NCBI GenBank assembly: GCA_963512955.1
Contig: CAUPOP010000010.1
Coordinates: forward strand, 14,157 to 78,156
DNA from: an uncultured Flavobacterium sp.
GTDB taxonomy: Bacteria > Bacteroidota > Bacteroidia > Flavobacteriales > Flavobacteriaceae
Length of the DNA: 64,000 nucleotides
Direction: 5' to 3'
In this document: piece after piece, positions 374 through 22,279 of the stretch
Layout: each line of letters opens with the position of its first letter
How positions within the stretch are numbered: position 1 is the first letter of the stretch
Program-made: the position numbers and the translations under genes
Notes under the pieces: model-generated
Databases searched by the model: none
What the model was told of the DNA's origin: nothing
What the model saw: only the letters and a program-made list of their open reading frames with translations

Positions 374-1774
374 ATGATTTCAAATGATTCTATAGTTGCT
401 TTAGCCACTCCTTCAGGAGCTGGAGCAATAGCCATAATCCGAATTTCGGGCGAAAATGCCATTGCTATTGGTCATTCTGTTTTTAAATCTATCAAAAATA
501 AAGATTTAAGAAATCAAAAAACTCATACGTTACATCTGGGTCATATTATGGATGAAACCAAAGCTTTAGACGAAGTTTTAGTTTCTATTTTTAAAGGACC
601 TAACTCCTACACTGGTGAAAATACAATAGAAATTTCTTGCCATGGTTCAACTTATATTCAACAGCAAATTATTCAATTGTTGCTTCGAAAAGGCTGTCGA
701 ATGGCTGATCCTGGTGAATTTACACTTCGTGCTTTCTTGAACGGAAAACTCGATTTATCACAAGCCGAAGCGGTAGCCGATTTGATTTCGTCTGATAATG
801 AAGCGTCTCATCAAATAGCGATGCAACAAATGCGTGGTGGCTTCTCAAATGAAATCGCTAAACTCCGTGAAGAACTTTTGAATTTTGCTTCGCTGATTGA
901 ACTCGAATTGGATTTTGCCGAAGAAGACGTAGAATTTGCAGACAGAACTCAATTTCATGAATTAGTTAACCGAATTGAGTTTGTATTGAAACGTTTAATC
1001 GATTCTTTTGCTGTGGGGAATGTCATCAAAAATGGAATTCCTGTGGCGATAGTTGGTGAACCAAATGTGGGAAAATCAACTTTATTGAATGCTTTATTGA
1101 ATGAAGAACGTGCTATTGTTTCTGAAATTGCAGGAACTACACGTGATACCATTGAGGACGAATTAGTCATTGGTGGCATCGGTTTTAGATTTATTGATAC
1201 TGCTGGAATCCGTGATACTACTGATGTGGTGGAAAGCATTGGAATTCGCAAAACATTTGAAAAAATTGAGCAGGCACAAGTCGTTTTATATTTATTTGAA
1301 AGCTTAAAGTTTAAAGTACAAAGTTCAGAATACATAGTAGAAATTGAGAAAATCAAGAATCAATTTCCTCTAAAACCTTTAGTAGTTGTTATCAATAAAA
1401 TTGATTTGCTTTCGGAAAATGAAGTTCTAAGTATTCGTAAACAACTGGAACCATTAGATGTTAAACTTGAAACTATTTCTGCAAAAGAAAAAATTGGCGT
1501 AAATGAACTTAAAAATCAATTACTTTCTTTTGTAAACACTGGTGCGCTGCGAAACAACGAAACAATTGTGACCAATACGCGTCATTATGATTCCTTATTG
1601 AAAGCTTTGGAAGAAATCCAAAAAGTAAAATACGCATTAGAAACCAATTTATCCAGTGACTTAATGGCTTTGGATATCAAAGAAGCCTTGTATCATTTTG
1701 GGATGATAACTGGACAAGTTACCAATGATGAATTGTTAGGAAATATTTTTGCAAATTTCTGCATCGGGAAGTAA
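374..1774 (+). CDS. mnmE: tRNA uridine-5-carboxymethylaminomethyl modification GTPase MnmE
   Basis: 466 aa; G1 motif GEPNVGKST, DTAGIR, NKIDL, and the family-typical C-terminal FCIGK. Confidence 0.95.
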   Translation: MISNDSIVALATPSGAGAIAIIRISGENAIAIGHSVFKSIKNKDLRNQKTHTLHLGHIMDETKALDEVLVSIFKGPNSYTGENTIEISCHGSTYIQQQIIQLLLRKGCRMADPGEFTLRAFLNGKLDLSQAEAVADLISSDNEASHQIAMQQMRGGFSNEIAKLREELLNFASLIELELDFAEEDVEFADRTQFHELVNRIEFVLKRLIDSFAVGNVIKNGIPVAIVGEPNVGKSTLLNALLNEERAIVSEIAGTTRDTIEDELVIGGIGFRFIDTAGIRDTTDVVESIGIRKTFEKIEQAQVVLYLFESLKFKVQSSEYIVEIEKIKNQFPLKPLVVVINKIDLLSENEVLSIRKQLEPLDVKLETISAKEKIGVNELKNQLLSFVNTGALRNNETIVTNTRHYDSLLKALEEIQKVKYALETNLSSDLMALDIKEALYHFGMITGQVTNDELLGNIFANFCIGK

Positions 1775-1846
1775 CTATACTTCTCTTTCTTGTTAAGCAT
1801 CTGTTTTTGTTGGGTTTACGGATTTTTTTCTTCCTTTATTTGTTGC

Positions 1847-1913
1847 CAAATTGCCTTTTTTTAAATATATTTGTTGTTCAATTGTTGCCATAATATCATT
1901 TTTGTTGCCCAAA
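1847..1913. repeat. array of four TTGTTG(C/T)C motifs including the left att candidates
   Basis: TATTTGTTGCCAAA at 1847-1860, TTGTTGTTC at 1871-1879, TTGTTGCCA at 1882-1890, TTTGTTGCCCAAA at 1901-1913. The last is identical to 22156-22168. Confidence 0.6.
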
Positions 1914-4475: not shown

Positions 4476-4512
4476 TGGTATTATCAATTCATAATACCAA
4501 ACCATAATACCA
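4476..4512. repeat. TGGTATTAT-N6-ATAATACCA-N4-ATAATACCA inverted plus direct repeat
   Basis: Read directly: 9-bp stem with 6-nt loop just after the stop at 4465, then a third copy at 4504-4512. Could be a terminator and/or protein-binding sites. Confidence 0.5.
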
Positions 4513-4668
4513 AAAAATATTTTAACCTCTTTATTTACAGCAGGTTACTAATACCATTTTTTCCTTTTTCTTCCTTACCAAAGTGCCTACCCTATCTTCG
4601 CTAAGTAATTGATAACCAATTATGACATTAGCGCTGATGTCCATTTTTAATTAAATCTTTTAACGAAG

Positions 4669-4971
4669 ATGGACACTAATATTTTAGAAAAATTAGAACG
4701 CATTGAAAAATTGCTAGAAACACAGCAAGCAATGCAAAAGCAAGTACTAAATTTTAACGATGCTTGCATTTATTTAGAACTTTCCCAGTCACACTTGTAT
4801 AAACTTACGAGTACTGGAAGCATTCCTCATTACAAACCTAATGGGAAGAAACTGTATTTCAATCGCCAAGAACTTGACAATTGGCTTTTGAGAAACAGAA
4901 GCAATTCTATTGACGAAATCGAACAAGAAGCAGCTAACTACTTAATCAAGAAAGGAAGGGTGCAATTATGA
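4669..4971 (+). CDS. helix-turn-helix (excisionase/HTH_17 family) DNA-binding protein
   Basis: LNFNDACIYLELSQSHLYKLTSTGSIPHYKPNGKKLYFNRQELDNWL is a typical Bacteroidota mobile-element HTH. Confidence 0.7.
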   Translation: MDTNILEKLERIEKLLETQQAMQKQVLNFNDACIYLELSQSHLYKLTSTGSIPHYKPNGKKLYFNRQELDNWLLRNRSNSIDEIEQEAANYLIKKGRVQL

Positions 4972-5252
4972 TAGAGTTAATGGACTTAGCAATGGAAATG
5001 TCAAAAGACATTCAATATTTGAAAGCTTATATAGAAGCCTTAAAAAATCAAAAAAGTGGTAAGTTAAGCGATGAGTGGCTAGACAATCAAGAAGTACTAC
5101 AAACACTTCATATAAGCCCACGAACACTACAAACCTATCGTGACAATGGTACACTTCCATTCAGTAAAATTGAAGGTAAATTCTATTACAAATCAAGTGA
5201 TATAGAAAACCTTTTACAGAGTAATTATACTAACAAATCAAAAGACAAGTAG
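4968..5252 (+). CDS. helix-turn-helix (excisionase/HTH_17 family) DNA-binding protein
   Basis: LDNQEVLQTLHISPRTLQTYRDNGTLPFSKIEGKFYYKSSDIENLL; 4-nt ATGA overlap with the preceding gene. Confidence 0.7.
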   Translation: MIELMDLAMEMSKDIQYLKAYIEALKNQKSGKLSDEWLDNQEVLQTLHISPRTLQTYRDNGTLPFSKIEGKFYYKSSDIENLLQSNYTNKSKDK

Positions 5253-5253
5253 T

Positions 5254-6159
5254 ATGATTACAAAGGAAAAAATACTGAACAAAACGCACTACGGTTTAAA
5301 TATCTATGCGTTTATTTTGAGACAGTTTTATCCTAACGCTACCGTTCTCTCTCTTCATGGGAGAGAATGTAGTGTTACTTGTAACCCTTACAATCAGGAT
5401 AAAGAAACTTTATTGGTAAGTATCGTAAATAATTGTGCAACACATAAAGATGTCGAAATTTTGGATTTTCATGGAGATGTCTTCGACTTTGCTCAATTGT
5501 ATTTTCAATGTAACAATCAAACGGAATTACTTCAAAAAATCAATAAAGTAATGCATTTGAGAATTGATACAAAAGAAACAAAAGAGTACGATTACATTGA
5601 ACAAGAAGACACAACTTGGTATGTAAAATGCAGTTTTTACAAAGCTCCTGTAATGAATGTATTCCCATTGAAAGAATTAAAATTAAGCGAGATATACGAT
5701 TTAATTACAAGCAATACCTATGAAAGCGTTACAAACCATTTAAGAACGATTACAGACCTTAAAGAGAAAAAAAAGTACAAAGCCAACAAATTTGATTATG
5801 TAACCTTCTCAGGAACTTTTACAAAGCGAAACGATGATGATTTAATCAAACATTCACTATTAATGACAATTGATTTAGATCATTTGGAAAACCTAAACCA
5901 AACTAGAGAAATGTTATTGAAAGATGAATATTTTGAAACCGAATTACTTTTCAAATCTCCTTCAGGTGATGGTTTAAAATGGATTATAAAAATTGATTTA
6001 GAACAAGCCACGCATCAAGAATATTATACCGCCGTATCTAATTATTTAGAGCAGCAATACAGTATCAAAGTTGATGCATCAGGTAAAGACATTTCCCGAG
6101 CTTGTTTTTTATGTTATGATTCCGAAGCTTACATTAACCCTAGACACACAACAAAATGA
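5254..6159 (+). CDS. BT4734/VirE-N-like protein, probable archaeo-eukaryotic-type primase-polymerase
   Basis: MTIDLDHL (DxD) and SPSGDGLKWII (sGxG-h) motifs in the order expected of AEP PrimPol domains. Confidence 0.55.
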   Translation: MITKEKILNKTHYGLNIYAFILRQFYPNATVLSLHGRECSVTCNPYNQDKETLLVSIVNNCATHKDVEILDFHGDVFDFAQLYFQCNNQTELLQKINKVMHLRIDTKETKEYDYIEQEDTTWYVKCSFYKAPVMNVFPLKELKLSEIYDLITSNTYESVTNHLRTITDLKEKKKYKANKFDYVTFSGTFTKRNDDDLIKHSLLMTIDLDHLENLNQTREMLLKDEYFETELLFKSPSGDGLKWIIKIDLEQATHQEYYTAVSNYLEQQYSIKVDASGKDISRACFLCYDSEAYINPRHTTK

Positions 6160-7910
6160 ATAAGAAAATATTTAATCCAAAAGAATGGTTAGAAGCTCCT
6201 GCAAAGCAAGAACCTCAACCAAAACAAATGCCTACTCCTATTGTTTCCGACAATCAGTTTGAAAACTATTTACAACAAATCGAAAATACAGGAACAGACA
6301 TAACACAGGGCTACGACAACTGGAGAAACATAGGCTTTGCACTAGCTGACGAATTTGGCGAAATGGGTAGAGACTATTTCCACAGAATAAGTAAATTCAA
6401 TAGTGCTTATGATTACAAAGAATGTGATGTACAATACAACAATTGCTTAAAAGCTAAAGGAACAGGCGTTACAATGGCTACAATCTATTATTTAGCACAA
6501 CAGAACAACATTAAAATACATAATGAAAAACCAATAGTAAATAATGAAGTAACGGAAGTAAAAATAGAGAAAACACCAGTATTTCCAAGTCATATTTACG
6601 AAACCTTACCACTATTCCTAAAAGATTGCGTTAAACCTGCAACCACAAACGAGGAAAGAGATATTTTGTTATTGGGTACACTCACAACATTAAGTGCTTG
6701 CTTACCTTCTATTTATGGTATTTACGATGGTAAAAAAGTAATGGCAAACTTGTATTTATTTGTAACAGCTCCAGCATCAGCAGGTAAAGGAAGATTAACC
6801 CAATGCAAACAATTGGTGCAGCCTATTCACAGATTAAAGCGAGAACAAGCTACTTTAATAAAAAAGGAATACGAAGCTAACCTTGCAATGTACAACCAAG
6901 AAAAAGGTAAAAATCCAAATGCCGAAAAACCTGCAAAACCACCCGAAAGAATGTTGTTCATTCCTGCCAATAATAGTACAACAGGAGTATTTCAATTATT
7001 GTTTGATAATAACGGAGAAGGATTAATTTTTGAAACTGAAGGCGATACATTAGCACAAGCATTTAAAAGCGATTATGGCAATTATTCTGATGGTTTTCGT
7101 AAAGCATATCATCACGAAACAATAAGCTATTACCGTAGAACAGACCGTGAATATGTAGATATTGAAAACCCATGTTTATCAACGGTATTATCTGGAACAC
7201 CAAAGCAAGTTTCAGCCTTAATACCAAATGCAGAAAATGGTTTATTCAGTAGGTTTATGTTCTATTACATGAACATCACTCCTATTTGGAAAAACGTATT
7301 TGAAATTCAAACTACAAATGGATTAGACGATTATTACAACGAACTAGGCGGACAATTTTTGGAGTTCTACAAAGCGTTAAACAACAACCCCAGTATTCAA
7401 ATTAAATTGAGCCAAGGCCAACAATTACAATTCAATAAGTATTTTTCAAAAGTGCAAACCAAATATTTGAATATTCAAACCGATGATTACATTGCCACAA
7501 TCAGAAGAATGGGACTAAATGCCTTTCGTTTAATGATGGTAATCACAACTTTACGAATCATGGAAGACGGCGATTGTTCCACTACTAGAGAATGTGAAGA
7601 CATCGATTTTCAAAATGTACTCGATGTAGTAACGGTTTTGACACAGCATAGTAGCAAAGTGTTTAACGATTTACCTGTTGAAACTCCAGTTACCACAAGA
7701 ACAAACCGTAAAGAAAAGTTCTTAGAAATGCTTCCCGAAGCTTTCACAACAGCCGACTATTTAGCTATTTCAGAGAAATTAACTATTCCTCATAAAACTG
7801 CCGAAGGCTACATAACTGCATTTGCAAAAGCAGGTTTAATACATAGAGAAATGAATGGAAAATACCGCAACACAAGCAAACAAGGGAATAAGGATTTTAA
7901 GGGGAACTAA
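6156..7910 (+). CDS. PriCT-2 / DUF3987-type P-loop protein (VirE-like putative replicative helicase)
   Basis: N-terminal GYDNWRNIGFALADEFGEMGRDYFHRIS (primase C-terminal-2 like), then Walker A TAPASAGKGRL. ATGA overlap with the upstream gene. Confidence 0.6.
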   Translation: MNKKIFNPKEWLEAPAKQEPQPKQMPTPIVSDNQFENYLQQIENTGTDITQGYDNWRNIGFALADEFGEMGRDYFHRISKFNSAYDYKECDVQYNNCLKAKGTGVTMATIYYLAQQNNIKIHNEKPIVNNEVTEVKIEKTPVFPSHIYETLPLFLKDCVKPATTNEERDILLLGTLTTLSACLPSIYGIYDGKKVMANLYLFVTAPASAGKGRLTQCKQLVQPIHRLKREQATLIKKEYEANLAMYNQEKGKNPNAEKPAKPPERMLFIPANNSTTGVFQLLFDNNGEGLIFETEGDTLAQAFKSDYGNYSDGFRKAYHHETISYYRRTDREYVDIENPCLSTVLSGTPKQVSALIPNAENGLFSRFMFYYMNITPIWKNVFEIQTTNGLDDYYNELGGQFLEFYKALNNNPSIQIKLSQGQQLQFNKYFSKVQTKYLNIQTDDYIATIRRMGLNAFRLMMVITTLRIMEDGDCSTTRECEDIDFQNVLDVVTVLTQHSSKVFNDLPVETPVTTRTNRKEKFLEMLPEAFTTADYLAISEKLTIPHKTAEGYITAFAKAGLIHREMNGKYRNTSKQGNKDFKGN

Positions 7911-8041
7911 TTCAAGTTTCCCTTATTTCCTCAAACCCCTTAACTACCTTAATTAATGTGAATAACTTTTCTTTTCTCTTTTTTGGTTATTAATTACTTT
8001 TTCTTACATTAGACAAAATTTGACAAGTCAATAATAGTATT

Positions 8042-8341
8042 ATGAACTTTGGAGAACACATAAAACAATTACGGGAACAAAACCAACTACTGCAAAGGCA
8101 ATTAGCCAATGCGTTAGATATGGACACCGCTATGCTAAGTAAGATTGAAAGAGGAGAACGGAGAGCCAAAAGGGAACACATACCTATTCTTGCTTCACTT
8201 TTAAAAACTAATGAAAAAGAATTATTCACATTATGGTTTGCCGACCAAGTCTATAATTTAATCAAAGAAGAGAATAATGCTTCTGAAATATTACAAGCAG
8301 CAGAAAAAGAAATAATATCAAAATTGAAACACTATGAGTGA
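8042..8341 (+). CDS. XRE-family HTH transcriptional regulator
   Basis: FGEHIKQLREQNQLLQRQLANALDMDTAMLSKIERGERR is a classic Xre/Cro HTH. Confidence 0.8.
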   Translation: MNFGEHIKQLREQNQLLQRQLANALDMDTAMLSKIERGERRAKREHIPILASLLKTNEKELFTLWFADQVYNLIKEENNASEILQAAEKEIISKLKHYE

Positions 8342-9372: not shown

Positions 9373-10032
9373 ATGAGTTCAAAAGAAACACAAGTAAAAT
9401 CTAAAGAAAGAGTTACAGACCACGGCGAAGTATTTACTAACAAGCGTGAGGTAAATGCCATGTTAGACTTAGTGAAACAAGAAACAGAAAGAATAGATTC
9501 TCGTTTTTTGGAGCCTGCATGTGGAACAGGAAATTTCTTAGTAGAGATTTTAGAAAGAAAATTAAAAGTAGTTGAAGCTCGTTACAAAAAAAGCCAATTG
9601 GAATACGAAAGAAATGCTATTACAGCAATTTCAAGTATATATGGAGTAGATATATTAGAGGATAATGTAGATGCTTGTAGAGATAGATTGTTAGGTATAT
9701 TCACTAAATATTACATCAATCATTACAAAAAAGATTTTAACGAAGATTTCTTAAAAGCAGCTCAATTTATTTTATCTAAAAATATCATTTGGGGCAATGC
9801 TTTATCTATGAAAACGACAGAAGGTAAACCAATTACATTTTCAGAATGGAGTGCAGTAAATGGTAGTATGTTAAAAAGAAGAGATTTTCAATTAGATAAA
9901 TTATTAGAAAATGTGGAATACGATGATAATGAAATGAATTTATTTTCAGACCATCAAGAACCTGTTTTTATTCCACAACCAGTAGCTGAATTTCCATTAA
10001 CGCATTTCTTAAAAATAGCTGAAAATGATTGA
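9373..10032 (+). CDS. methyltransferase-like protein with SAM-binding motif but no NPPY catalytic motif
   Basis: HGEVFTNKREVNAMLDL (motif X), FLEPACGTGNFLVEILER (motif I), IYGVDILEDNVDACRDRL. The ORF ends before any (N/D)PP(Y/F). Confidence 0.6.
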   Translation: MSSKETQVKSKERVTDHGEVFTNKREVNAMLDLVKQETERIDSRFLEPACGTGNFLVEILERKLKVVEARYKKSQLEYERNAITAISSIYGVDILEDNVDACRDRLLGIFTKYYINHYKKDFNEDFLKAAQFILSKNIIWGNALSMKTTEGKPITFSEWSAVNGSMLKRRDFQLDKLLENVEYDDNEMNLFSDHQEPVFIPQPVAEFPLTHFLKIAEND

Positions 10033-11560
10033 AACCAATTACAATCCAGATGTATTAACGTGCCTTGCTAATTTAAGCAATGACGAGGTATTTACACCTC
10101 CTACACTGGCTAACCAAATGTTAGATACTTTACCGCAAGAATTATTTAGCAATTCCAAAACAACATTTCTCGACCCAGTTAGTAAGTCTGGTGTTTTCTT
10201 ACGAGAAATAGCAAAACGTTTAATGATAGGTTTAGAAACTGAAATTCCTAACCAACAAGAACGATTAAACCACATTTTTAGCAAACAATTATTTGGTATT
10301 GCCATTACAGAACTTACCTCGCTATTATCTCGTAGAAGTGTATATTGTTCTAAAATTGCCAACGGTAAATATTCTATTTGTGAAACCTTTACAAACGAGC
10401 AAGGAAATATCCTTTTTGATAAAACCGAACACAATTGGAAAAACGGCAAATGTACCTTTTGTAATGCCAGCCAAGAAGTCTATGAGCGTGAGGATGCTTT
10501 AGAAACTTATGCTTACCAATTTATACATACCAACAACCCTGAAAAAATATTTAAGAATATGAAGTTTGATGTCATTATAGGAAACCCACCATATCAATTG
10601 AGCGATGGTGGCAATGGTAAAAGTGCAAAACCTATTTATCATAAATTCATTCAACAAGCAAAAAAATTAAATCCTAGATTTTTATCAATGATTATTCCAG
10701 CTCGTTGGTATGCTGGTGGTAAAGGATTAGATGATTTTAGAGAAGAAATGCTTACCGATAATAGAATACGCAAAATTGTAGATTTCGAAAATTCAAACGA
10801 AGTATTTCCGGGTGTTGATGTTGCTGGTGGTATTTGCTATTTCTTATGGGAAAAAGATAATCAAGGATTATGTGAAGTTATCAATTATAGTGATGGCTCA
10901 AAAGTAAATTCTGAAAGAGCATTAAATGAGTTTCCGATATTAATAAGACAAAGTCAAGCAATTCCAATTATTAGAAAAGTAATAGCAAACAATAAACAAG
11001 CATTAAATGTACGTGTGTCTTCAAGAAAACCTTTTGGATTACCTACTAATTATGCTCCTAAGAAAAAAGGAATACCTTGTTGGTTTACTCAAAAAATTGG
11101 CAAACAATTTGCAAATCCAGAAGATGTTTCAGACCCTTTCAAAATTTTAGACAAATGGAAGTTTTTAGCTCCAAAAGCTCCAATTGCAGGACAAACTGAT
11201 TTTTCTAAACCTGTTGGTTTTTATTATGAAGGAAACACATTAATTGCAAAACCAGGCGAATGTTGTACCGAATCGTTTATTGTTTTAGGTGCTTTCAAAA
11301 CCGAGAATGAGGTACTTGCTTATAAATCTTATATTTTCACAAAAACAGTTCGCTTTCTTTTATTACAAACTGTCGTTTCACAGGATGTTACAAAAAACAA
11401 TTTTCAATTTGTTCCTGATTTAATAAAGTATGAAGGAATATATACGGATGAAATGTTGAGAAAAAAGTGGGGTATAAATGAAGAAGAATGGCGATACATT
11501 GACACAAAAATAAAAGCAACAGAATTAATGGGAAATAGAAAAAACGAAGACAATGAGTAA
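10025..11560 (+). CDS. N6-adenine DNA methyltransferase (Eco57I-like gamma class)
   Basis: DEVFTPPTLANQMLDTL (motif X), FLDPVSKSGVFLREI (motif I with Gly replaced by Lys), FDVIIGNPPYQLSDGG (motif IV). 8-nt overlap with the upstream ORF. Confidence 0.8.
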   Translation: MIETNYNPDVLTCLANLSNDEVFTPPTLANQMLDTLPQELFSNSKTTFLDPVSKSGVFLREIAKRLMIGLETEIPNQQERLNHIFSKQLFGIAITELTSLLSRRSVYCSKIANGKYSICETFTNEQGNILFDKTEHNWKNGKCTFCNASQEVYEREDALETYAYQFIHTNNPEKIFKNMKFDVIIGNPPYQLSDGGNGKSAKPIYHKFIQQAKKLNPRFLSMIIPARWYAGGKGLDDFREEMLTDNRIRKIVDFENSNEVFPGVDVAGGICYFLWEKDNQGLCEVINYSDGSKVNSERALNEFPILIRQSQAIPIIRKVIANNKQALNVRVSSRKPFGLPTNYAPKKKGIPCWFTQKIGKQFANPEDVSDPFKILDKWKFLAPKAPIAGQTDFSKPVGFYYEGNTLIAKPGECCTESFIVLGAFKTENEVLAYKSYIFTKTVRFLLLQTVVSQDVTKNNFQFVPDLIKYEGIYTDEMLRKKWGINEEEWRYIDTKIKATELMGNRKNEDNE

Positions 11561-14045
11561 AAACTATTTTCCAGAAAAAAGCATTCCAAAAGTGTATGCT
11601 TATACCGATACAAGATTTCCAAATTGCATAAAAGTGGGTTATACCACCAAAACTGCGGTAGAAAGAGTAAAAGAACAATATCCCGTAAAATTACCTAATA
11701 TGAGTTATGAAATCATATTAGAAGAATTAGCAATGCGTAATGATGGCACATTATTTACCGATAAAGACATTCATAAATTACTAAATAACAAAAAAGTAAA
11801 ACATATCAATGGAGAATGGTTTGAATGTTCACTAAAAGAAATAAAAGCTTGTATTCTTGAAATAAAAACAGGTATTGTTAACGAAGACAAACGTACACTC
11901 GATTTCGGATTACGACCAGAACAAGCCGAAGCCATAAAAAAAACAGAAGCTTATTTTATCAGTTCTAAAAAAGAAAATAAAAATCAAATCCCTCATTTTC
12001 TTTGGAATGCAAAAATGCGTTTTGGTAAAACCTTTACAACCTATCAATTAGCTAAAAAAATGGGTTGGACTAAAATATTGGTTTTAACCTTTAAACCTGC
12101 GGTTCAAAGTGCTTGGAAAGAAGATTTAGAATCGCATATCGATTTTGCAGGTTGGCAATTTGTTTCTAATAAAGAAGATGATTTAAGTTATGAAAACATT
12201 GATACAAAGAAACCGTTTGTATTCTTTGGTTCCTTTCAAGATTTATTAGGTACTAACTCTGCAGGAGGTATCAAATCTAAAAATGAATGGGTACATACTA
12301 CTAATTGGGATTGTGTTGCTTTTGACGAATACCATTACGGAGCTTGGCGAGAAAATGCAAAAGAACTTTTTGAAGCTGAAAGTGCCAAAGAACAACAGTT
12401 TGGGGAAGGAGTCGGAATTGAGTATTTTGATGAAAGTATAATGCCAATTACGACAGGGCATTATTTGTATTTGTCGGGTACACCTTTCAGAGCTATATCA
12501 TCAGGAGAGTTTATCGAAGAGCAAATTTTCAACTGGACATATTCAGATGAACAACGAGCGAAAACAGAATGGAAAGGGGATAAAAATCCTTATTTATCAT
12601 TACCAAGAATGGTGATGTTAACATATCAAATGCCTGACACTATTGTAGAAGTAGCAATGAAAGGAGAATTTAATGAGTTTGATTTAAATGTATTCTTTTC
12701 TGCTGATGGCGAAGGTAATAATGCAAAATTCAAATACGAAGATTACGTTCAAAAGTGGCTGGATTTAATTAGAGGTAACTTAGCGGAAACAACCATTGAT
12801 AATTTAAAAATGGGTGCAAAGAAACCACCAATGCCATTTTCAGATGCTCGACTATTAAATGTGTTACAGCATACTTTTTGGTTTTTACCAACGGTTGCAT
12901 CTTGTCATGCAATGAAAAATTTAATAGATCAAAAGCAAAATAAATTTTACCATGATTATGAAGTTGTTGTAAGTGCAGGAACAGGAGCTGGTATTGGTGT
13001 TGAAGCATTAAAACCAGTAGAAAAAGCTTTAGGCAATCCATTACAAACTAAAACAATAACACTTTCTTGTGGTAAATTAACAACTGGTGTTTCTGTCAAA
13101 CCATGGACAGGAATATTTATGTTACGTAATTCATCAAGTCCCGAAACATATTTTCAAGCTGCATTTAGAGTGCAAACACCTTGGACTGTAAAAAATCCTG
13201 ATAAGAATGCTCCTAATCGTGAAGAAATAATAAAACATGAATGTTATGTTTTTGATTTTGCTCCAGATAGAGCTTTACGACAAATTGCAGATTATAGTTG
13301 TCGACTAAATGTTGGTGAAAGTAATCCCGAAAAGAAAGTTGAAGAATTTATCAACTTCTTGCCAGTTTTGGCTTATGATGGTAGTTCAATGAAAGAAATC
13401 GATGCTGCTGGAATTTTAGATATTGCAATGAGCGGAACAACTGCAACACTATTAGCAAGACGATGGGAAAGTGCTTTATTGGTTAATGTTGATAATTTTA
13501 CTTTACAAAGGTTGATGGATAATGAGGCTGCAATGCAAGCCTTAAGTAACATTGAAGGCTTTAGAAATCTAAATCAAGACATAGAAACTATTATCAATAA
13601 ATCAGAATCTATTAAAAAAGCAAAAGCCGAAGCAAACGAAAAAGAGCTTACTAAAAAAGAAAAAAAAGAACTTTCAGACGAAGAGAAAGAATACAAAAGC
13701 ATCAGAAAACAAATTCAAGAAAAGCTTATCAAATTTGCTACTCGTATTCCTGTATTTATGTATTTAACTGATTACAGAGAAAGAAGTTTAAAAGATGTAA
13801 TTACTCAATTAGAACCTGCATTATTCAAAAAAGTAACAGGATTAAATGTTAAAGATTTTGAATTGTTAGTCAGTCTTGGTGTTTTCAATAGTGCATTAAT
13901 GAATGATGCTGTCTATAAATTTAAACGATATGAAGATGCAAGTTTGTCATATTCTGGCATTAACAAACATCCTGAGGATAAAATAGGTCTTTATGATACG
14001 GTAATAAGTGCGGAGGAATTTAAACAAGAATTTGAGAATATCTAA
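11553..14045 (+). CDS. T5orf172 (GIY-YIG-like) domain fused to SF2 DEAD/DEAH-type helicase; putative restriction/translocase subunit
   Basis: N-terminal KVYAYTDTRFPNCIKVGYTT...INGEWFECS. Helicase motifs AKMRFGKT (I), AFDEYHY (II), LSGTPF (III), YFQAAFRVQT (VI). 8-nt overlap with the MTase gene. Confidence 0.75.
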   Translation: MSKNYFPEKSIPKVYAYTDTRFPNCIKVGYTTKTAVERVKEQYPVKLPNMSYEIILEELAMRNDGTLFTDKDIHKLLNNKKVKHINGEWFECSLKEIKACILEIKTGIVNEDKRTLDFGLRPEQAEAIKKTEAYFISSKKENKNQIPHFLWNAKMRFGKTFTTYQLAKKMGWTKILVLTFKPAVQSAWKEDLESHIDFAGWQFVSNKEDDLSYENIDTKKPFVFFGSFQDLLGTNSAGGIKSKNEWVHTTNWDCVAFDEYHYGAWRENAKELFEAESAKEQQFGEGVGIEYFDESIMPITTGHYLYLSGTPFRAISSGEFIEEQIFNWTYSDEQRAKTEWKGDKNPYLSLPRMVMLTYQMPDTIVEVAMKGEFNEFDLNVFFSADGEGNNAKFKYEDYVQKWLDLIRGNLAETTIDNLKMGAKKPPMPFSDARLLNVLQHTFWFLPTVASCHAMKNLIDQKQNKFYHDYEVVVSAGTGAGIGVEALKPVEKALGNPLQTKTITLSCGKLTTGVSVKPWTGIFMLRNSSSPETYFQAAFRVQTPWTVKNPDKNAPNREEIIKHECYVFDFAPDRALRQIADYSCRLNVGESNPEKKVEEFINFLPVLAYDGSSMKEIDAAGILDIAMSGTTATLLARRWESALLVNVDNFTLQRLMDNEAAMQALSNIEGFRNLNQDIETIINKSESIKKAKAEANEKELTKKEKKELSDEEKEYKSIRKQIQEKLIKFATRIPVFMYLTDYRERSLKDVITQLEPALFKKVTGLNVKDFELLVSLGVFNSALMNDAVYKFKRYEDASLSYSGINKHPEDKIGLYDTVISAEEFKQEFENI

Positions 14046-18060: not shown

Positions 18061-19781
18061 TGAATATCAAACCTACAATAATAAAAGAGTATTTACAATC
18101 TTTAAAGGAAGATAATGAATTAGATGTAATCTTTACAATTTTACTTCAAACACTTGAATATGAAATACTCTCTACTCCAAAAGAATATAAAGGCTTTTCT
18201 CAATATGGCAAAGACATAGTAACTGTAAGAGTAGATCCTACGGATGGTATAAAAAAACGATTCTATTTTGAGTTAAAAGCTGGTGATATTGACTCACAAA
18301 AATGGAATATGCCCGATAATGGAGTACGAGATACTCTTAGAATGACTGTCGATGCCGATTTTAAAACTACTTATAAAGATTTCGATAAGTTACCAATTAA
18401 AGTTATTTTGGTATTTAATGGAATGGTAAGTGAAAAAATTCGAACATCACTTAATGGTTTTTCTCAAAAAGAATTTATTGAAAAAGGTATTGAATTTGAA
18501 GAGTGGAATATCTATAAAATTTCTGAATTACTCTCAAATGAAATTTTTAGTAAATATTTATTGATTAATGATGAAAATATTAGACTTTTCAACAGAGTTT
18601 TAGTAAATCTAAATGTAGGTGAAAATGTTTCAAATGATTTTGATTCACTATTGAATAATTTACTATTTAAAAATTCATTTACTAAAACAAAAGGCAAATT
18701 AAGTCGCTCACAAAAACTTATATTTCAATCCGTTAACTTAATAGCATATATAATTTATACAGAATCAAAAAACTACAATAACTTATCAATTGCAAAAAAA
18801 TACTTAACTCATTTAATACTAAAATATTGGTATTGGATTTTAAAAAACAAATTAGAAACGAACAAAGAAATTTTAGCTTTATTCAGTCAATTTTACATTT
18901 TTTATAATTCCACTATTGAAGAACTTTTAGAAAGGAATTTAAATCTATTAGAATTAAAGGATGGCTTACACTATGAAAATGGAGGTAGATATGAACAGAT
19001 AGGTTATACAATTAGAAGTTATGATTTTAATGTATTACTAAATAGTTTTATTATCTCTTTAAAAGATAAAATTCAAAAAGACCAGTATAAAGGCTATAAT
19101 GATAGAATAAACAACACCTTACAGAATATAAATGTTCTTTCAAGACCTTTACTAGATATTCACTCAATTCCTATAATTGACAATATTAATCTATTAATTT
19201 ATTTTGGCGACATTGAATCAGCGAAGCAATATCTTATGAATATATTAGGTTATTTAAAGTTTCTTAAAAAGAAATATAATAAATTTCCGGATGCAGCAAA
19301 CAATATAGAGAGTGTAATAAAATATACAGTTACTGGCATAAAACCTGTTTATTATATTGATTCTGTTTCACCATTATTAGCAATTATAATGGAATATATC
19401 GCAATATTAGATTTAGAAAAAGCATACTATGAAACAAGAAAATTCATCATTGAAAATGATATTACTTTAGGTTTATTTATTCCGCATCATAGCATTAATT
19501 CCAATTCAAAACATCTTATTGAAGATACTGAAAATGATTTAGAAGAACAATTATTTTCGAGGTCAGTTAATGAAGGTTATCAAATTGAAACAAGTATGTA
19601 TTCTGAATTTGACAAAGAATTATCATTTCAAGATTTCAAGAGTAAAATTTTAAAAAGAAAAGAAGAATTTCAATATGAATACAGAACTGATAAATATGGT
19701 TTCTCTTCATTAAGAACAATTGCTCATTATTATTTCAAAACACCTTATTTCCCTGATTATTGGCGTTATCATTTAAAATAG
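18060..19781 (+). CDS. hypothetical protein, pAgo-associated, with possible N-terminal PD-(D/E)xK nuclease fold
   Basis: TAATG stop/start overlap with the upstream gene. LQTLEYEIL ... QYGKDIVTV ... RFYFELKAGDI gives E-helix, D52 and E71-x-K73 in PD-(D/E)xK order and spacing. The remaining ~400 aa look helical. Confidence 0.55.
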   Translation: MNIKPTIIKEYLQSLKEDNELDVIFTILLQTLEYEILSTPKEYKGFSQYGKDIVTVRVDPTDGIKKRFYFELKAGDIDSQKWNMPDNGVRDTLRMTVDADFKTTYKDFDKLPIKVILVFNGMVSEKIRTSLNGFSQKEFIEKGIEFEEWNIYKISELLSNEIFSKYLLINDENIRLFNRVLVNLNVGENVSNDFDSLLNNLLFKNSFTKTKGKLSRSQKLIFQSVNLIAYIIYTESKNYNNLSIAKKYLTHLILKYWYWILKNKLETNKEILALFSQFYIFYNSTIEELLERNLNLLELKDGLHYENGGRYEQIGYTIRSYDFNVLLNSFIISLKDKIQKDQYKGYNDRINNTLQNINVLSRPLLDIHSIPIIDNINLLIYFGDIESAKQYLMNILGYLKFLKKKYNKFPDAANNIESVIKYTVTGIKPVYYIDSVSPLLAIIMEYIAILDLEKAYYETRKFIIENDITLGLFIPHHSINSNSKHLIEDTENDLEEQLFSRSVNEGYQIETSMYSEFDKELSFQDFKSKILKRKEEFQYEYRTDKYGFSSLRTIAHYYFKTPYFPDYWRYHLK

Positions 19782-19857
19782 GAACGCTATCGCTGTCGTA
19801 TTTGCATCCCACCCAGCCCAACGCTCCCAGCCGCACAAGTGGTTTCTCCCACCGCAC

Positions 19858-20598
19858 TCAGCACTTGTTTCCCCAACGGTACAGCACTTTTATTTTCCTG
19901 TTTTATTTTCCCAACCCCATCGCACATAAAACAGGAAAATAAAAGAGCTGTACTTCCAACCCTAAAAACAAGAGCTGAAACCCAACGCTAAAACCACTCC
20001 CAAGCTATTTTACATAATGAAGGCAACATTATAGTTCAAAAAAAAGAGATAATATTGGAAAAACGTTATTTTTTTGAACTATAATTTCATTATGTAAAAT
20101 AGCCGCACTCCAACGCTCCCACCCGAAATAGGAACAGTATTTTCATTGTTTTTTGAAGGTGCAATACAATTCCATAACAACACTTCAGCAAGCATTGAAA
20201 ACCCTAATTTCAATCAACACTCTTGCACCCTCAAAAATCAAAACCAAGAAAGAGTAACAAATTTTAGTGCTGGATATAAAGCAGTTTTATTTGTTTTTTC
20301 AATGGTTTTTATATCCAACCCTTAAAATCTGTTACCCTTTCAGAACTACCCGATTCAAAAAGAAAATCCCACCAAAAAACAACTCCCGATTAAGTCAAGG
20401 AAACAAAACAAAAAAAATAAAAAAAAGAATGCAAAGGTAAGTTTCGGGTTTACAAAAAAGCAAGTTCAAGCCTACGGTTTTTAAAAAAATCTCCACCCAA
20501 ACATTTCCAATCCACTTCCCGATTAAACAACGAAAACCCTATTCCAGTTCAACCATATGGGTAGTATTTTTTTAAAAAAACTTGCTTTTTTGAAACCC
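19858..20598 (-). other. cluster of five long imperfect inverted repeats in an ORF-free 0.88-kb region (candidate structured RNA or replication/transfer origin)
   Basis: Hairpin A is 19858-19978 (24/25-bp inner stem). B is 20003-20103 (18+17 bp). C is 20150-20237 (14/15 bp). D is 20248-20341 (~30 bp). E is 20446-20598 (20 bp). All four transition mismatches are A.C on + and therefore G.U on -, hence the tentative minus-strand call. Confidence 0.5.
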
Positions 20599-20661
20599 TA
20601 CACTAGAACAGATGGCTTTCTTTTTTTTCCTTTTTTCTTTTGAAAAATTTTATGGCGAAGC

Positions 20662-21111
20662 ATGAAATGCGAGCATAACTTTAAATCCGATATTATGACT
20701 TATCACAACGTATTTACACACCAAAAAGACAGAATTTACAGCCAACCCCACTTCTTCGTTTTAAGCAAAGGAAATAATAGCGGAAAACCTCTAAAAGAAC
20801 CTTGCCCGAACTGCTTCGTAATACTGGTAAAAACCGAAGAAGAAGCCGAAAACCTCTATTGGATAGCATTAAGCTTATGGAAATCAAAATTCTGGTATCA
20901 ACACTTAGTCGGTTCAGTTATTCCGTTTCTTCGATTACAGGAGTTTAAAAGCAATTTCAGAGATAAAGTGCTACAAATCTACAAGGAACACAAAAAACAC
21001 ACTGAAAACGTGGAAAAACTCAAAAAACTAGAAAGTCTATCAACTATCTACAGCAAAAATTTAGACACCATAGAAAGATTAAAAGCTGCAATACTTCATT
21101 ATTACCTGTAA
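20662..21111 (+). CDS. hypothetical protein
   Basis: 149-aa ORF followed by a clear terminator; no family recognised. Confidence 0.5.
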   Translation: MKCEHNFKSDIMTYHNVFTHQKDRIYSQPHFFVLSKGNNSGKPLKEPCPNCFVILVKTEEEAENLYWIALSLWKSKFWYQHLVGSVIPFLRLQEFKSNFRDKVLQIYKEHKKHTENVEKLKKLESLSTIYSKNLDTIERLKAAILHYYL

Positions 21112-21115
21112 TCCA

Positions 21116-21140
21116 AGCCCGATTTTTTCGGGCTTTTTCT
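21116..21140 (+). terminator. rho-independent terminator
   Basis: AGCCCGA-tttttt(loop)-TCGGGCT followed by TTTTCT. Confidence 0.7.
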
Positions 21141-21161
21141 TTAAAATTCTCATTGAAAATT

Positions 21162-21226
21162 TGTCATATATGACACTAAAAAAATGTCCCTGCATTATTT
21201 TGCACTTTGACATAAATAACTTGTCA
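21162..21226. promoter_or_regulatory. candidate operator sites built from TGTCA/TGACA half-sites
   Basis: Perfect 14-bp palindrome TGTCATATATGACA at 21162-21175 and TGACA-N9-TGTCA at 21208-21226, upstream of the 21383 gene. Confidence 0.35.
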
Positions 21227-21382
21227 TAACCCAAGCAAAGCAACAAAACGCAAAAGAATGCAAAGCCTTATTTAACAAGAGTTTAGCACAATTATTGCCC
21301 TATATTTACACAAATGGTACAGCTCTTGGACAAAGCCGTACCAAGTCCAAGTAAGTTATTAATTCATAAAAATTTTCATCAA

Positions 21383-22027
21383 ATGGGAAAAATTAATCAA
21401 GGTATTCTAGGAGGAGTATCAGGTAAAGTAGGTAATGTTATTGGTGGTAACTGGAAAGGGATTGACTACATCAGAGTTAAACCTTCAAATGTTGCAAATC
21501 CAAGAACAGCAGGTCAAGTAATGCAAAGAACAAAATTTACTGTGACTTTAGAGTTTTTACAAGCGATTAAGCCTTTTGTTAAAGCAGGTTACAGAAACCT
21601 TGCAAACAAAAAGACAGAGTTTAATGCTGCAATGTCTTACATCTTAAACAATGCAATTACAGGAGTAGATCCTGATTACATTGTAGATTACACATTAGCA
21701 CTTTTGAGTAGAGGTGGTTTATCAATGCCTTTAAACCCTTCAGCTGATGCTTCAACTTCTGGAGAGGTTACATTCACTTGGGGAGACAACTCGGCTGAGA
21801 GTAATGCAAATGCTACTGATAAAGTAATGTTGTTAGTTTACAACCCAGCTAAAAAAGAATCTGTTTCAATTGTTGGGGATGGAAACACTCGTGTTGATGG
21901 TTCTTACAACGTAGCTATTCCAACTACCTATGCAGGAGACACTTTAGAGCTTTTTATAGCGTTTATGTCGGCTGATGGAACACAACTATCAAACAGCATG
22001 TATTTAGGCTCTCAAATCGCAGGATAA
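21383..22027 (+). CDS. DUF6266-like hypothetical protein
   Basis: MGKINQGILGGVSGKVGNVIGGNWKGIDYIRVKP N-terminus resembles my recollection of Bacteroidota DUF6266 proteins. Internal ATG at 21383 preferred over 21314. Confidence 0.5.
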   Translation: MGKINQGILGGVSGKVGNVIGGNWKGIDYIRVKPSNVANPRTAGQVMQRTKFTVTLEFLQAIKPFVKAGYRNLANKKTEFNAAMSYILNNAITGVDPDYIVDYTLALLSRGGLSMPLNPSADASTSGEVTFTWGDNSAESNANATDKVMLLVYNPAKKESVSIVGDGNTRVDGSYNVAIPTTYAGDTLELFIAFMSADGTQLSNSMYLGSQIAG

Positions 22028-22046
22028 GTTTAAATTACTTAAAATT

Positions 22047-22075
22047 AAGTCGCTCATAGTAGCGACTTTTTTTAT
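22047..22075 (+). terminator. rho-independent terminator
   Basis: AAGTCGCT-catagt-AGCGACTT followed by a T-run. Confidence 0.75.
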
Positions 22076-22155
22076 ATATTTACATGCTGATAAATAAATC
22101 AACTTTCCTTTATTTACTTGTTTTTAAGCCTTTGTTTATAAGAATTTGATGCTTA

Positions 22156-22168
22156 TTTGTTGCCCAAA
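22156..22168. repeat. right att candidate (direct repeat of 1901-1913)
   Basis: TTTGTTGCCCAAA is identical to 1901-1913. With flanks, TTATTTGTTGCCCAAA also matches 1846-1860 apart from one C indel. Confidence 0.6.
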
Positions 22169-22279
22169 CCTTGTAAAGCATTATAAATACTACTAACTTC
22201 AAATATTGTATCGGAAAGTAAGTTATTTATGTATTTTTAAAATTATTTTTAAAGCTTGAAAAACTATCATAATCCAAAA

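Follow-up and report, generated by a model that had tools for sequence, protein, structure and literature searches.

A hairpin array in an ORF-free gap

The analyzed window is a stretch of 64,000 nt from an uncultured Flavobacterium sp. that matches Flavobacterium fragile, and it contains an integrative island of about 20.4 kb (approximately 1775–22221) that is inserted at the 3′-end of mnmE. Inside the island, near its right end, lies a gap of 880 nt (19782–20661), which contains an array of long hairpins. The gene order before the gap is mnmE, a helix-turn-helix (HTH) gene, a tyrosine integrase, DUF6617, HTH_17, a BT4734-type primase, and a DUF3987/PriCT_2 helicase, followed by RhuM, a split type IIG methyltransferase, T5orf172, and a prokaryotic Argonaute (pAgo) with two genes of no known function, which reach up to the gap. 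On its right side, the gap is followed by DUF6943, DUF6266, and GYF_2.

An initial annotation had described the gap as free of open reading frames (ORFs), C-rich and G-poor on the plus strand, and filled with five hairpins (A–E) and several short direct repeats. All of this was reproduced. The longest ORF comprises 60 amino acids, and the plus strand contains 318 A, 247 T, 206 C, and 109 G. An inverted-repeat scan placed all five hairpins at the same coordinates, and a repeat scan recovered all of the direct repeats. The hairpins are contiguous and have no ORFs between them. A dispersed repeat or miniature inverted-repeat transposable element was ruled out, as no second copy of any hairpin exists in the 64-kb window.

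The left limit of the conserved module coincides with direct repeat 1 (AAATAGGAACGCTATCGCTGTCGTATTTGCAT, 19776–19810), and homology with three related loci (L002, L036, and L061) begins at 19772–19776. This repeat also contains the stop codon of the cargo gene to its left. Hairpin A (19858–19978; minus strand, as for all five hairpins) has arms of 28 nt that are 96% complementary (19879–19906/19926–19953), and it is restricted to one module sub-family (the window, L002, and L036). Hairpin B (20004–20103) is formed by 20004–20021/20086–20103 (18 of 18 pairs) and 20028–20044/20069–20085 (17 of 17 pairs). About 25 loci conserve it, and the arms of hairpins B and E are paralogous. Direct repeat 2 (20126–20150), a degenerate copy of repeat 1, marks the start of a second module; at this position, L002 carries an indel of 50 nt. 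The arms of hairpin C (20146–20241) are 89% complementary (20146–20164/20223–20241). Hairpin D (20248–20341) contains 20262–20280/20308–20326 and additional outer pairs, which form helices of 20 bp and 8 bp on the minus strand. It is followed by two copies of a repeat of about 20–26 nt that contains CCCGATT (20345–20404), and a third copy is found in the loop of E (20514–20539).

Hairpin E (20406–20641) is composed of an outer purine/pyrimidine stem P1 (20406–20432/20615–20641), a stem P3 (20447–20466/20579–20598, 90% complementary), a small hairpin P4 (20468–20480), a stem P5 (20481–20498/20559–20578), and a variable loop (20499–20558). The minus strand of E carries a signature, AAGTTCAAGCC...AATCTCCACC...GGTAGTA (20462–20566), which is common to other mobile elements of Bacteroidota and is called the E-core signature here.

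When the gap was folded as RNA, both strands were far more stable than shuffled sequences (z = −7.4 for the minus strand and z = −12.4 for the plus strand), and the fold energy was −285 kcal/mol for the minus strand versus −208 kcal/mol for the plus strand. Folded as minus-strand single-stranded DNA (ssDNA), E reached −43.9 kcal/mol (z = −5.6). At the left edge of the array, a canonical G-quadruplex motif is present on the minus strand (19805–19830, GGGAGCGTTGGGCTGGGTGGG), with short loops between its four G3 tracts.

Conservation and modular organization

About 80 Flavobacterium loci, namely those that hold a DUF6943 homologue, were compared, and flanks of 6 kb were examined. In nearly all of them, the gap aligns with the DNA upstream of DUF6943, and the nucleotide identity of the region as a whole is 70–85%. 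The E region shows 70–90% nucleotide identity across the loci, while the DUF6943 proteins are only about 50% identical. In most loci, the conserved ORF-free stretch is 1.2–1.5 kb long and contains up to nine hairpins, and about 500 nt between B and C are missing from the copy in the window. The array has a modular organization: direct repeat 1 (starting at 19776) and its degenerate copy (starting at 20126) resemble the leader that follows E, and we conclude that hairpins A–D arose from duplications of the E module and have since diverged.

The region 19776–22221 is 91–98% identical in F. fragile HXWNR69 (L002), where both flanks are unrelated. The gap and DUF6943 form a conserved right-end module of the island, and other cargo accompanies the same module in related islands. 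In many loci, a wider unit is found, which consists of the array, DUF6943, a gene for 74 amino acids, DUF5675, and a protein of 252 amino acids. In L005, the array unit is accompanied by an integrase that adjoins tRNA-Tyr, and the distance from the tRNA to the next chromosomal-type gene is only about 5.4 kb. If this stretch is a complete island, the array makes up about a quarter of the element. A direct repeat of the tRNA 3′-end of at least 11 nt that would delimit the small islands in L005 and L036 was not found.

Related loci show the array in the course of evolution. L032 contains two convergent copies of array and DUF6943 (5500–6435 and 10887–11740), the C/D hairpins are tandemly duplicated in L040 (3285–4305), and the array of L019 (3044–4786) is split by a DDE-transposase insertion sequence.

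An exact pattern search retrieved the E signature from four contigs of viral collections and from at least 120 metagenome contigs. A GC-richer form of the core was detected with blastn at about 67% identity in six records of Bacteroides, Parabacteroides, and Phocaeicola. In the phage and plasmid collections, the low-GC copy of the window had no match, and only the GC-richer core matched. The core adjoins tyrosine integrases in 32 metagenome loci. In Bacteroides and Parabacteroides, it lies at the edge of the element, about 100 nt upstream of small ORFs and a co-oriented PcfK/PcfJ/DUF3873 operon. Examples are L227:544–732 and L228:5001–5187, which derive from Bacteroides fragilis and Parabacteroides distasonis records and represent conjugative-type elements. 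To the left of the E-core of L228, about 900 nt of DNA are unannotated.

At the gathering threshold of Rfam 15, only a tRNA-Tyr elsewhere in the window passed. A permissive Rfam scan of the gap yielded generic microRNA-precursor hairpin matches far below the threshold, and the GC-richer cores yielded nothing. In summary, the mobile elements of Bacteroidota carry with this array a genuine structured element that is conserved and uncatalogued.

Covariation and the folding strand

A ragged alignment of 73 sequences (A2) gave no consensus structure and was replaced by trimmed alignments. The E-core alignment (A7) comprised 34 diverse sequences, and the alignment of hairpin D comprised 22. On the minus strand, hairpin D has 29 pairs, 16 of which show compensatory changes, and one G·U pair is invariant. 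Its consensus energy is −36.2 for the minus strand versus −27.2 for the plus strand. The fold of the E-core is a three-way junction that has a terminal loop of variable length and contains blocks that are both invariant and unpaired (GGCTTGAAC, AAATACTACC/GGTGGAGATTT). Compensatory changes were observed at 18 of its 32 pairs, and double-change cells numbered 146, compared with 41.5 in shuffled alignments. The fraction of paired cells was 94.2% on the minus strand, versus 80.6 ± 0.7% in the shuffles and 37–61% in controls with slid partners. Their conservation and covariation across dozens of further genomes place the structures beyond chance. The earlier proposal of a functional, structure-constrained non-coding element is borne out.

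The second question concerns the strand. The initial annotation had noted that four mismatches in C and D (20157/20230, 20253/20336, 20260/20329, and 20270/20318) are all A·C on the plus strand and that G·T mismatches are absent, and it had proposed that the minus strand, antisense to all genes of the island, is the folding strand. A fold restricted to Watson–Crick pairs reproduced the four mismatches, added a fifth A·C at 20371/20656, and contained no G·T. Four of four is weak evidence alone because the composition by itself predicts about 2.4 A·C per G·T, and the strand asymmetry became convincing only when the homologues were added. In hairpin C, all of the 24 sequences have A·C at one column pair (24/100) of the plus strand, which corresponds to G·U on the minus strand. 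The longer arrays of other loci contain extra hairpins (H1–H5), which are absent from the window. The symmetric internal-loop columns of C, D, H1, H4, and H5 hold 155 A·C cells and 2 G·T cells; seven column pairs have a majority of A·C and none has a majority of G·T. For the whole array in 63 loci, the ratio is 577 A·C versus 104 G·T. Identical helices of the E-core are paired to only 85.8% on the plus strand. The minus strand of the E-core has 104 G·U pairs and the plus strand has 12; if only the variable pairs are counted, the numbers are 36 and 12 (p = 0.025 relative to the expectation from composition). Together with a promoter on the same strand (see below), the conserved G·U/G·T positions and a wobble asymmetry that exceeds the effect of composition uphold the minus strand as the strand that folds. 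One candidate indicator of the strand, the P4 tetraloop, was dropped because the clades disagree: Flavobacterium has a UNCG-like loop on the plus strand, and other clades have UUCG on the minus strand.

The initial annotation had further taken the mismatches as modest evidence for selection on an RNA. The minus-strand part of this claim stands; RNA and ssDNA motifs cannot be separated by bioinformatics (PMC5737381).

A promoter motif in the stem of hairpin E

The minus strand of E contains a −7 box, TACCTTTG (20432–20439, consensus TAnnTTTG), which was found in a motif scan, and 21 nt from it a −33 TTG (20461–20463) within the invariant GGCTTGAACTTG. Both elements (20432–20463) lie within the stem, on its minus-strand 3′ arm. 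The sigma-A consensus of Bacteroides and Flavobacterium consists of a −33 TTG/TTTG and a −7 TAnnTTTG, and we take the TTG-N19-22-TAnnTTTG of hairpin E to be this Bacteroidota promoter consensus. Of 145 distinct cores, 87 carry a perfect motif on the minus strand and another 21 carry a near-perfect one; the two n positions vary freely. On the plus strand, TAnnTTTG did not occur within 90 nt after the core in any of 185 cores, and a plus-strand promoter motif upstream of E was absent from all 63 loci.

In the E-core alignment (A7), the eight spacer positions proximal to the −33 element make up part of the outer helix (columns 20–27/157–164), which covaries. The base that flanks the −7 box also covaries, with C–G in 32 sequences and T–A in 19, and the remainder of the box lies opposite a variable, mostly unpaired segment.

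The presence of the motif is correlated with the gene on the other side of E. The motif goes together with a co-oriented downstream ORF, with ratios of 82:8 when the motif was present and 18:13 without it (Fisher p = 1e-4). In the high-GC loci alone, the ratios were 12:4 with and 1:12 without the motif (p = 5e-4). E ends 50–130 nt before the start of DUF6943 on the plus strand (46 metagenome loci and 79 genome loci), and the folding minus strand is the template strand of DUF6943. In duplex DNA, the E promoter would, judged from its sequence, point to the left, toward D, C, B, and A, and a minus-strand RNA would start near 20425.

A putative single-strand promoter

Frpo elements fold ssDNA into a duplex-like promoter, and the genes of leading regions are oriented for transcription from the transferred strand (PMC11541004). 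We tentatively favor the view that E is a Frpo-like single-strand promoter hairpin that drives DUF6943 and is accompanied by duplicated modules, and we place somewhat less than even confidence in it. The entry of ssDNA, the activity of the promoter in either state of the DNA, and the function of DUF6943 are the parts that we infer. The island would arrive in a cell as minus-strand ssDNA, e.g., after mobilization by a conjugative helper; in other phyla, relaxase-less islands that are moved by such helpers are common (bioRxiv 10.64898/2026.01.13.699239). E would then fold and create a promoter pseudo-duplex, the −7 region of which would be largely unpaired. The promoter-bearing arm would serve as the non-template strand, and RNA polymerase would read the opposite arm and continue into DUF6943. 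DUF6943 could thus be produced ahead of second-strand synthesis, and its role might be in establishment or in anti-restriction. In double-stranded DNA, the promoter would reverse its output and generate a leftward minus-strand RNA of D, C, B, and A, the wobble pairs of which likewise fit the minus strand.

This would make E the first Frpo-type promoter family described for Bacteroidota and at the same time a strand-state switch with two outputs from one −33/−7 promoter, a combination that we consider possible but rather doubtful. The generalization that hundreds of instances in Flavobacterium islands and in conjugative elements of gut Bacteroidales switch between DUF6943 or PcfK/PcfJ-type operons in the ssDNA state and a leftward long structured RNA in the duplex state is put forward with the same reserve.

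Several observations weigh against the proposed single-strand promoter. A relaxase, mating genes, and an origin of transfer (oriT) were not seen in the island, and both its ssDNA state and the choice of the minus strand for transfer are hypothetical. A duplex promoter with a structured minus-strand RNA accounts more simply for A–D. The arrays reach nine hairpins and 1.5 kb, versus 50–350 nt for known Frpo elements, and a promoter function leaves the extra hairpins unaccounted for. P4 has a conserved G·U on the plus strand, three P1 positions are G·T on the plus strand, and the p-values given above are inflated because the sequences are phylogenetically related. The promoter motif is absent from 37 of the 145 cores, and about a dozen of these face a convergent HTH_17 gene in place of a co-oriented one; for these reasons, the core has, or once had, a role beyond that of a promoter. 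Lastly, the anti-restriction role of DUF6943 is a guess from a weak fold match (E-values 0.01–0.07).

Alternative explanations

The array might instead be a gene for a structured non-coding RNA on the minus strand, with TTG-N21-TACCTTTG firing in duplex DNA and transcription running leftward through D, C, B, and A. We regard this as the main rival, possible yet doubtful. The product would be a long, G+U-rich multi-hairpin RNA (about 640 nt in the window and, in most relatives, about 1.1 kb) that acts in regulation or maintenance of the island; it could possibly work like the antisense or immunity RNA of satellite P4 or resemble the large structured RNAs of prophages, and E would be part either of a second RNA or of the region upstream of the promoter. 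The promoter is canonical and has the right place and orientation for such a gene, D, C, H1, H4, and H5 covary and have conserved, partly invariant G·U pairs on the minus strand, and the minus strand has the lower fold energy. In loci with long arrays, H1 is flanked by A8 and T8 at the far end, similar to an intrinsic terminator, and terminal loops of variable length in combination with conserved unpaired blocks are typical for RNAs. However, a transcript of this kind does not account for the covariation and minus-strand preference of E, which lies upstream of the promoter, for the pairing of the spacer with a segment about 115 nt away in the window (the distance follows the length of the terminal loop), or for the fact that the presence of the promoter tracks the gene on the opposite side. 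Furthermore, Rfam has no match, a clear terminator is missing at the left end of the array in the window, and a free-standing RNA gene would not need the strict coupling to DUF6943. Pairing of the spacer with a distant segment is expected solely for a promoter in ssDNA. Because the promoter elements sit in the stem of E, a promoter in ssDNA is no less likely than a free antisense RNA. A further idea is that E is the 5′ leader of the DUF6943 mRNA, a riboswitch-like or protein-binding cis-regulatory element of the plus strand with decayed duplicates upstream. Its position 50–130 nt before the start codon, the shared orientation, the plus-strand G·U of P4 and the G·T positions of P1, and the plus-strand fold, which is also far better than shuffles, would all suit a leader. 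But the lower pairing and the few G·U pairs of the plus strand, the lack of a plus-strand promoter motif upstream of E, the convergent genes that follow the core in some elements, and the invariant A·C mismatches of C and D on the plus strand make it very unlikely.

A cis-acting ssDNA site would share the minus-strand specificity of folding. It could be an oriT or a single-strand priming signal (G4-type ssi or a rolling-circle single-strand origin), used by a helper or by the primase-helicase of the island. The invariant unpaired blocks of the three-way junction resemble a protein recognition site, the element lies near the ends of integrative, conjugative, or mobilizable elements, cores without the promoter motif persist, and an ssDNA motif would look like an RNA to bioinformatics, as stated above. 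Nevertheless, we judge such a site improbable. No relaxase adjoins the array in the window or the Flavobacterium loci (a relaxase domain was absent from the gene annotations of the island in the window and from the recurrent neighbors in related loci), an association with primase and helicase is lacking within the 6-kb flanks, the oriT and ssi sites known so far consist of one hairpin or a short cluster and not of arrays of 1.5 kb, and a conserved TAnnTTTG with free nn is the signature of a promoter and not of a nick site. The initial annotation had also considered a link to the neighboring genes, i.e., that the gap is a guide source or regulatory RNA for pAgo or the replication origin of the PrimPol/helicase module. 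The gap directly follows the pAgo operon, and the island encodes the BT4734-type primase and the DUF3987/PriCT_2 helicase. However, the module is constant and the cargo is unrelated in HXWNR69, and DUF6943 is the constant partner. None of the approximately 80 related loci has a pAgo homologue within the 6-kb flanks, and only 5 have any match to 4500–8000, which includes the primase and helicase genes (5254–7910), within flanks of this length. We thus give the two links hardly any credence; for pAgo, the array is not an accessory, and the natural inference that the gap serves its neighbor was corrected by the comparison of loci.

To our knowledge, zygotic single-strand promoters have so far been known mainly from plasmids of Proteobacteria. 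If E is indeed a single-strand promoter, they extend to Bacteroidota, with the unusual promoter type of that phylum. The E-core signature would then be a simple sequence marker by which the leading ends of integrative elements and their early establishment genes could be located, both in Flavobacterium, which includes fish pathogens, and in gut Bacteroidales, and DUF6943 would become a candidate counter-defense protein. Even if the array acts as an RNA, it is an uncatalogued, strongly covarying structured element of up to 1.5 kb with hundreds of copies.

Comparison with known systems

Single-strand promoters of the Frpo/ssi type are found in the leading regions of conjugative plasmids such as F and ColIb-P9 (Samuel et al. 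2024, PMC11541004) and were reportedly described by Masai and Arai in 1997. E shares with them a long imperfect hairpin on the template strand of the downstream gene, promoter hexamers inside the stem with a poorly paired region at the downstream box, and a location on a mobile element directly upstream of small genes of the establishment/anti-defense type. It differs in that the promoter is composed of −33 TTG and −7 TAnnTTTG instead of −35 and −10 elements, the tip is a three-way junction with invariant blocks, and E is embedded in arrays of 0.9–1.5 kb with up to nine hairpins. In addition, the hosts of the array are integrative islands without a visible relaxase, and promoter activity in ssDNA is putative here. 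Similarity in sequence between E and known Frpo/ssi elements is unlikely because both the promoter type and the phylum differ.

Large RNAs such as GOLLD, ROOL, HEARO/omega RNA, and the CI immunity RNA of P4 are similarly long, non-coding, covarying, and rich in hairpins, and they also occur in prophage-like or island-like elements. In contrast to them, the array does not match Rfam models of the GOLLD/ROOL/HEARO type, it is modular with a variable number of hairpins instead of having one fixed architecture, and its best-conserved part lies upstream of the sole recognizable promoter.

The attC sites of integrons are also imperfect hairpins with conserved structure and a preferred strand at the boundaries of variable cargo. 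However, an integron integrase is not present here, the hairpins are not interleaved with cassettes, their sequence is strongly conserved, and they are 100–250 nt long and have a branched core. Clusters of hairpins that work on one strand only and are recognized by primase or RNA polymerase are furthermore known from the G4-/phiX-type ssi and the single-strand origins of rolling-circle replicons, which lie in leading regions. These are much shorter, and the array has no association with replication genes and carries a canonical promoter motif. A possible published counterpart is HMP_4078, a palindromic motif of Bacteroidetes located near integrase and D5_N domains (PMC8040213).

The 'iOriT' hitchers (bioRxiv 10.64898/2026.01.13.699239) resemble the island in that they combine an integrase and defense cargo with a conserved non-coding end module and lack relaxase and mating genes. 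That study covered six nosocomial species, among them E. coli, K. pneumoniae, and P. aeruginosa, and no Bacteroidota, and an oriT was not identified here.

Ends and gene content of the island

The span of the island follows from the duplication of the attachment (att) core, the end of homology at 22221, and repeats at both ends. The attL core (ATCGGGAAGTAA, 1763–1774, plus strand) comprises, as read from the sequence, the last 12 nt of mnmE (I-G-K-stop), and homology with L002 and L003 stops exactly at the end of the attR core (ATCGGAAAGTAA, 22210–22221, plus strand). The att 12-mer pattern ATCGGRAAGTAA occurs twice in the 64-kb window, versus 0.02 occurrences expected by chance. The target of integration is the mnmE codons for the conserved C-I-G-K terminus, and the copy borne by the island (TGTATCGGAAAGTAA) encodes the same residues. 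The repeat TTGTTGCCMAA, which was found in the repeat scan and represents candidate arm-type sites of the integrase, is located at the left end (1840–1912, plus strand), and one copy (TTGTTGCCCAA, 22157–22167, plus strand) is located at the right end; all exact copies are at the two ends of the island. TTGTTGCC repeats mark both ends. The integrases of the islands are of the Arm-DNA-bind_5/SAM_5 type. The left-end arm-type repeats overlap a plus-strand promoter-like site of the form TTG-N-TAnnTTTG upstream of the HTH/integrase operon.

An att-type 10-mer, ATCGGGAAGT, is found in inverted orientation in the E loop (20514–20523, minus strand). It is the attB-type version and the sole non-att copy in the 64 kb, and near-copies are located at 20347–20356 and 20383–20391. 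RNA- or DNA-guided integration was considered and is not supported, as p was approximately 0.085 in shuffles and islands that adjoin tRNA-Ser or tRNA-Tyr lack a match of this kind.

The DUF6943 gene (20662–21111, plus strand) probably starts at M12 (20695), as is the case for most homologues, and it is the constant partner of the array in the Flavobacterium loci. Its structure was modeled with high confidence (predicted local distance difference test, pLDDT, of 93) as one beta-rich domain with long helices. The top matches in the PDB are type I HsdS subunits (Foldseek probability 0.92–0.99, with weak E-values of 0.012–0.07). Because of these matches, the modeled protein resembles half an HsdS, i.e., one target-recognition domain and a long helix, and a counter-restriction role is plausible on the basis of the model. 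Relatives of DUF6943 were also found in phage gene clusters without the array.

The DUF6266 gene (21314–22027, plus strand) belongs to the right-end module in this sub-family. The 252-amino-acid protein of the wider unit (L019:7529–8287, minus strand) has equivalents in 66 of 80 loci; its gene is convergent with DUF6943, and the phage-lysin-like DUF5675 follows. It is about 87–96% identical across more than 6900 protein clusters, which is remarkable for an unannotated protein. Sequence searches gave no match in PDB, Pfam, PHROGs, or NCBIfam, and the structure model was poor (pLDDT 54) and was left unused. DUF6266 and the 252-amino-acid protein occupy equivalent positions in the two module types, and both have a glycine-rich N-terminus followed by an R/K-rich helix; BLASTP detected no significant similarity between them (E = 0.85).

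Two further features were observed in the left part of the island. The ORFs 9373–10032 and 10025–11560 both match N6-adenine methyltransferase domains (MmeI_Mtase, Eco57I, and N6_Mtase), and the pair looks like one type IIG-like gene that is split by a frameshift or composed of two parts. A second ORF-free gap of 424 nt (7910–8334) is located upstream of RhuM, and it carries an inverted repeat of 31 nt (7954–7984/8203–8233), the arms of which are 74% complementary and 218 nt apart.

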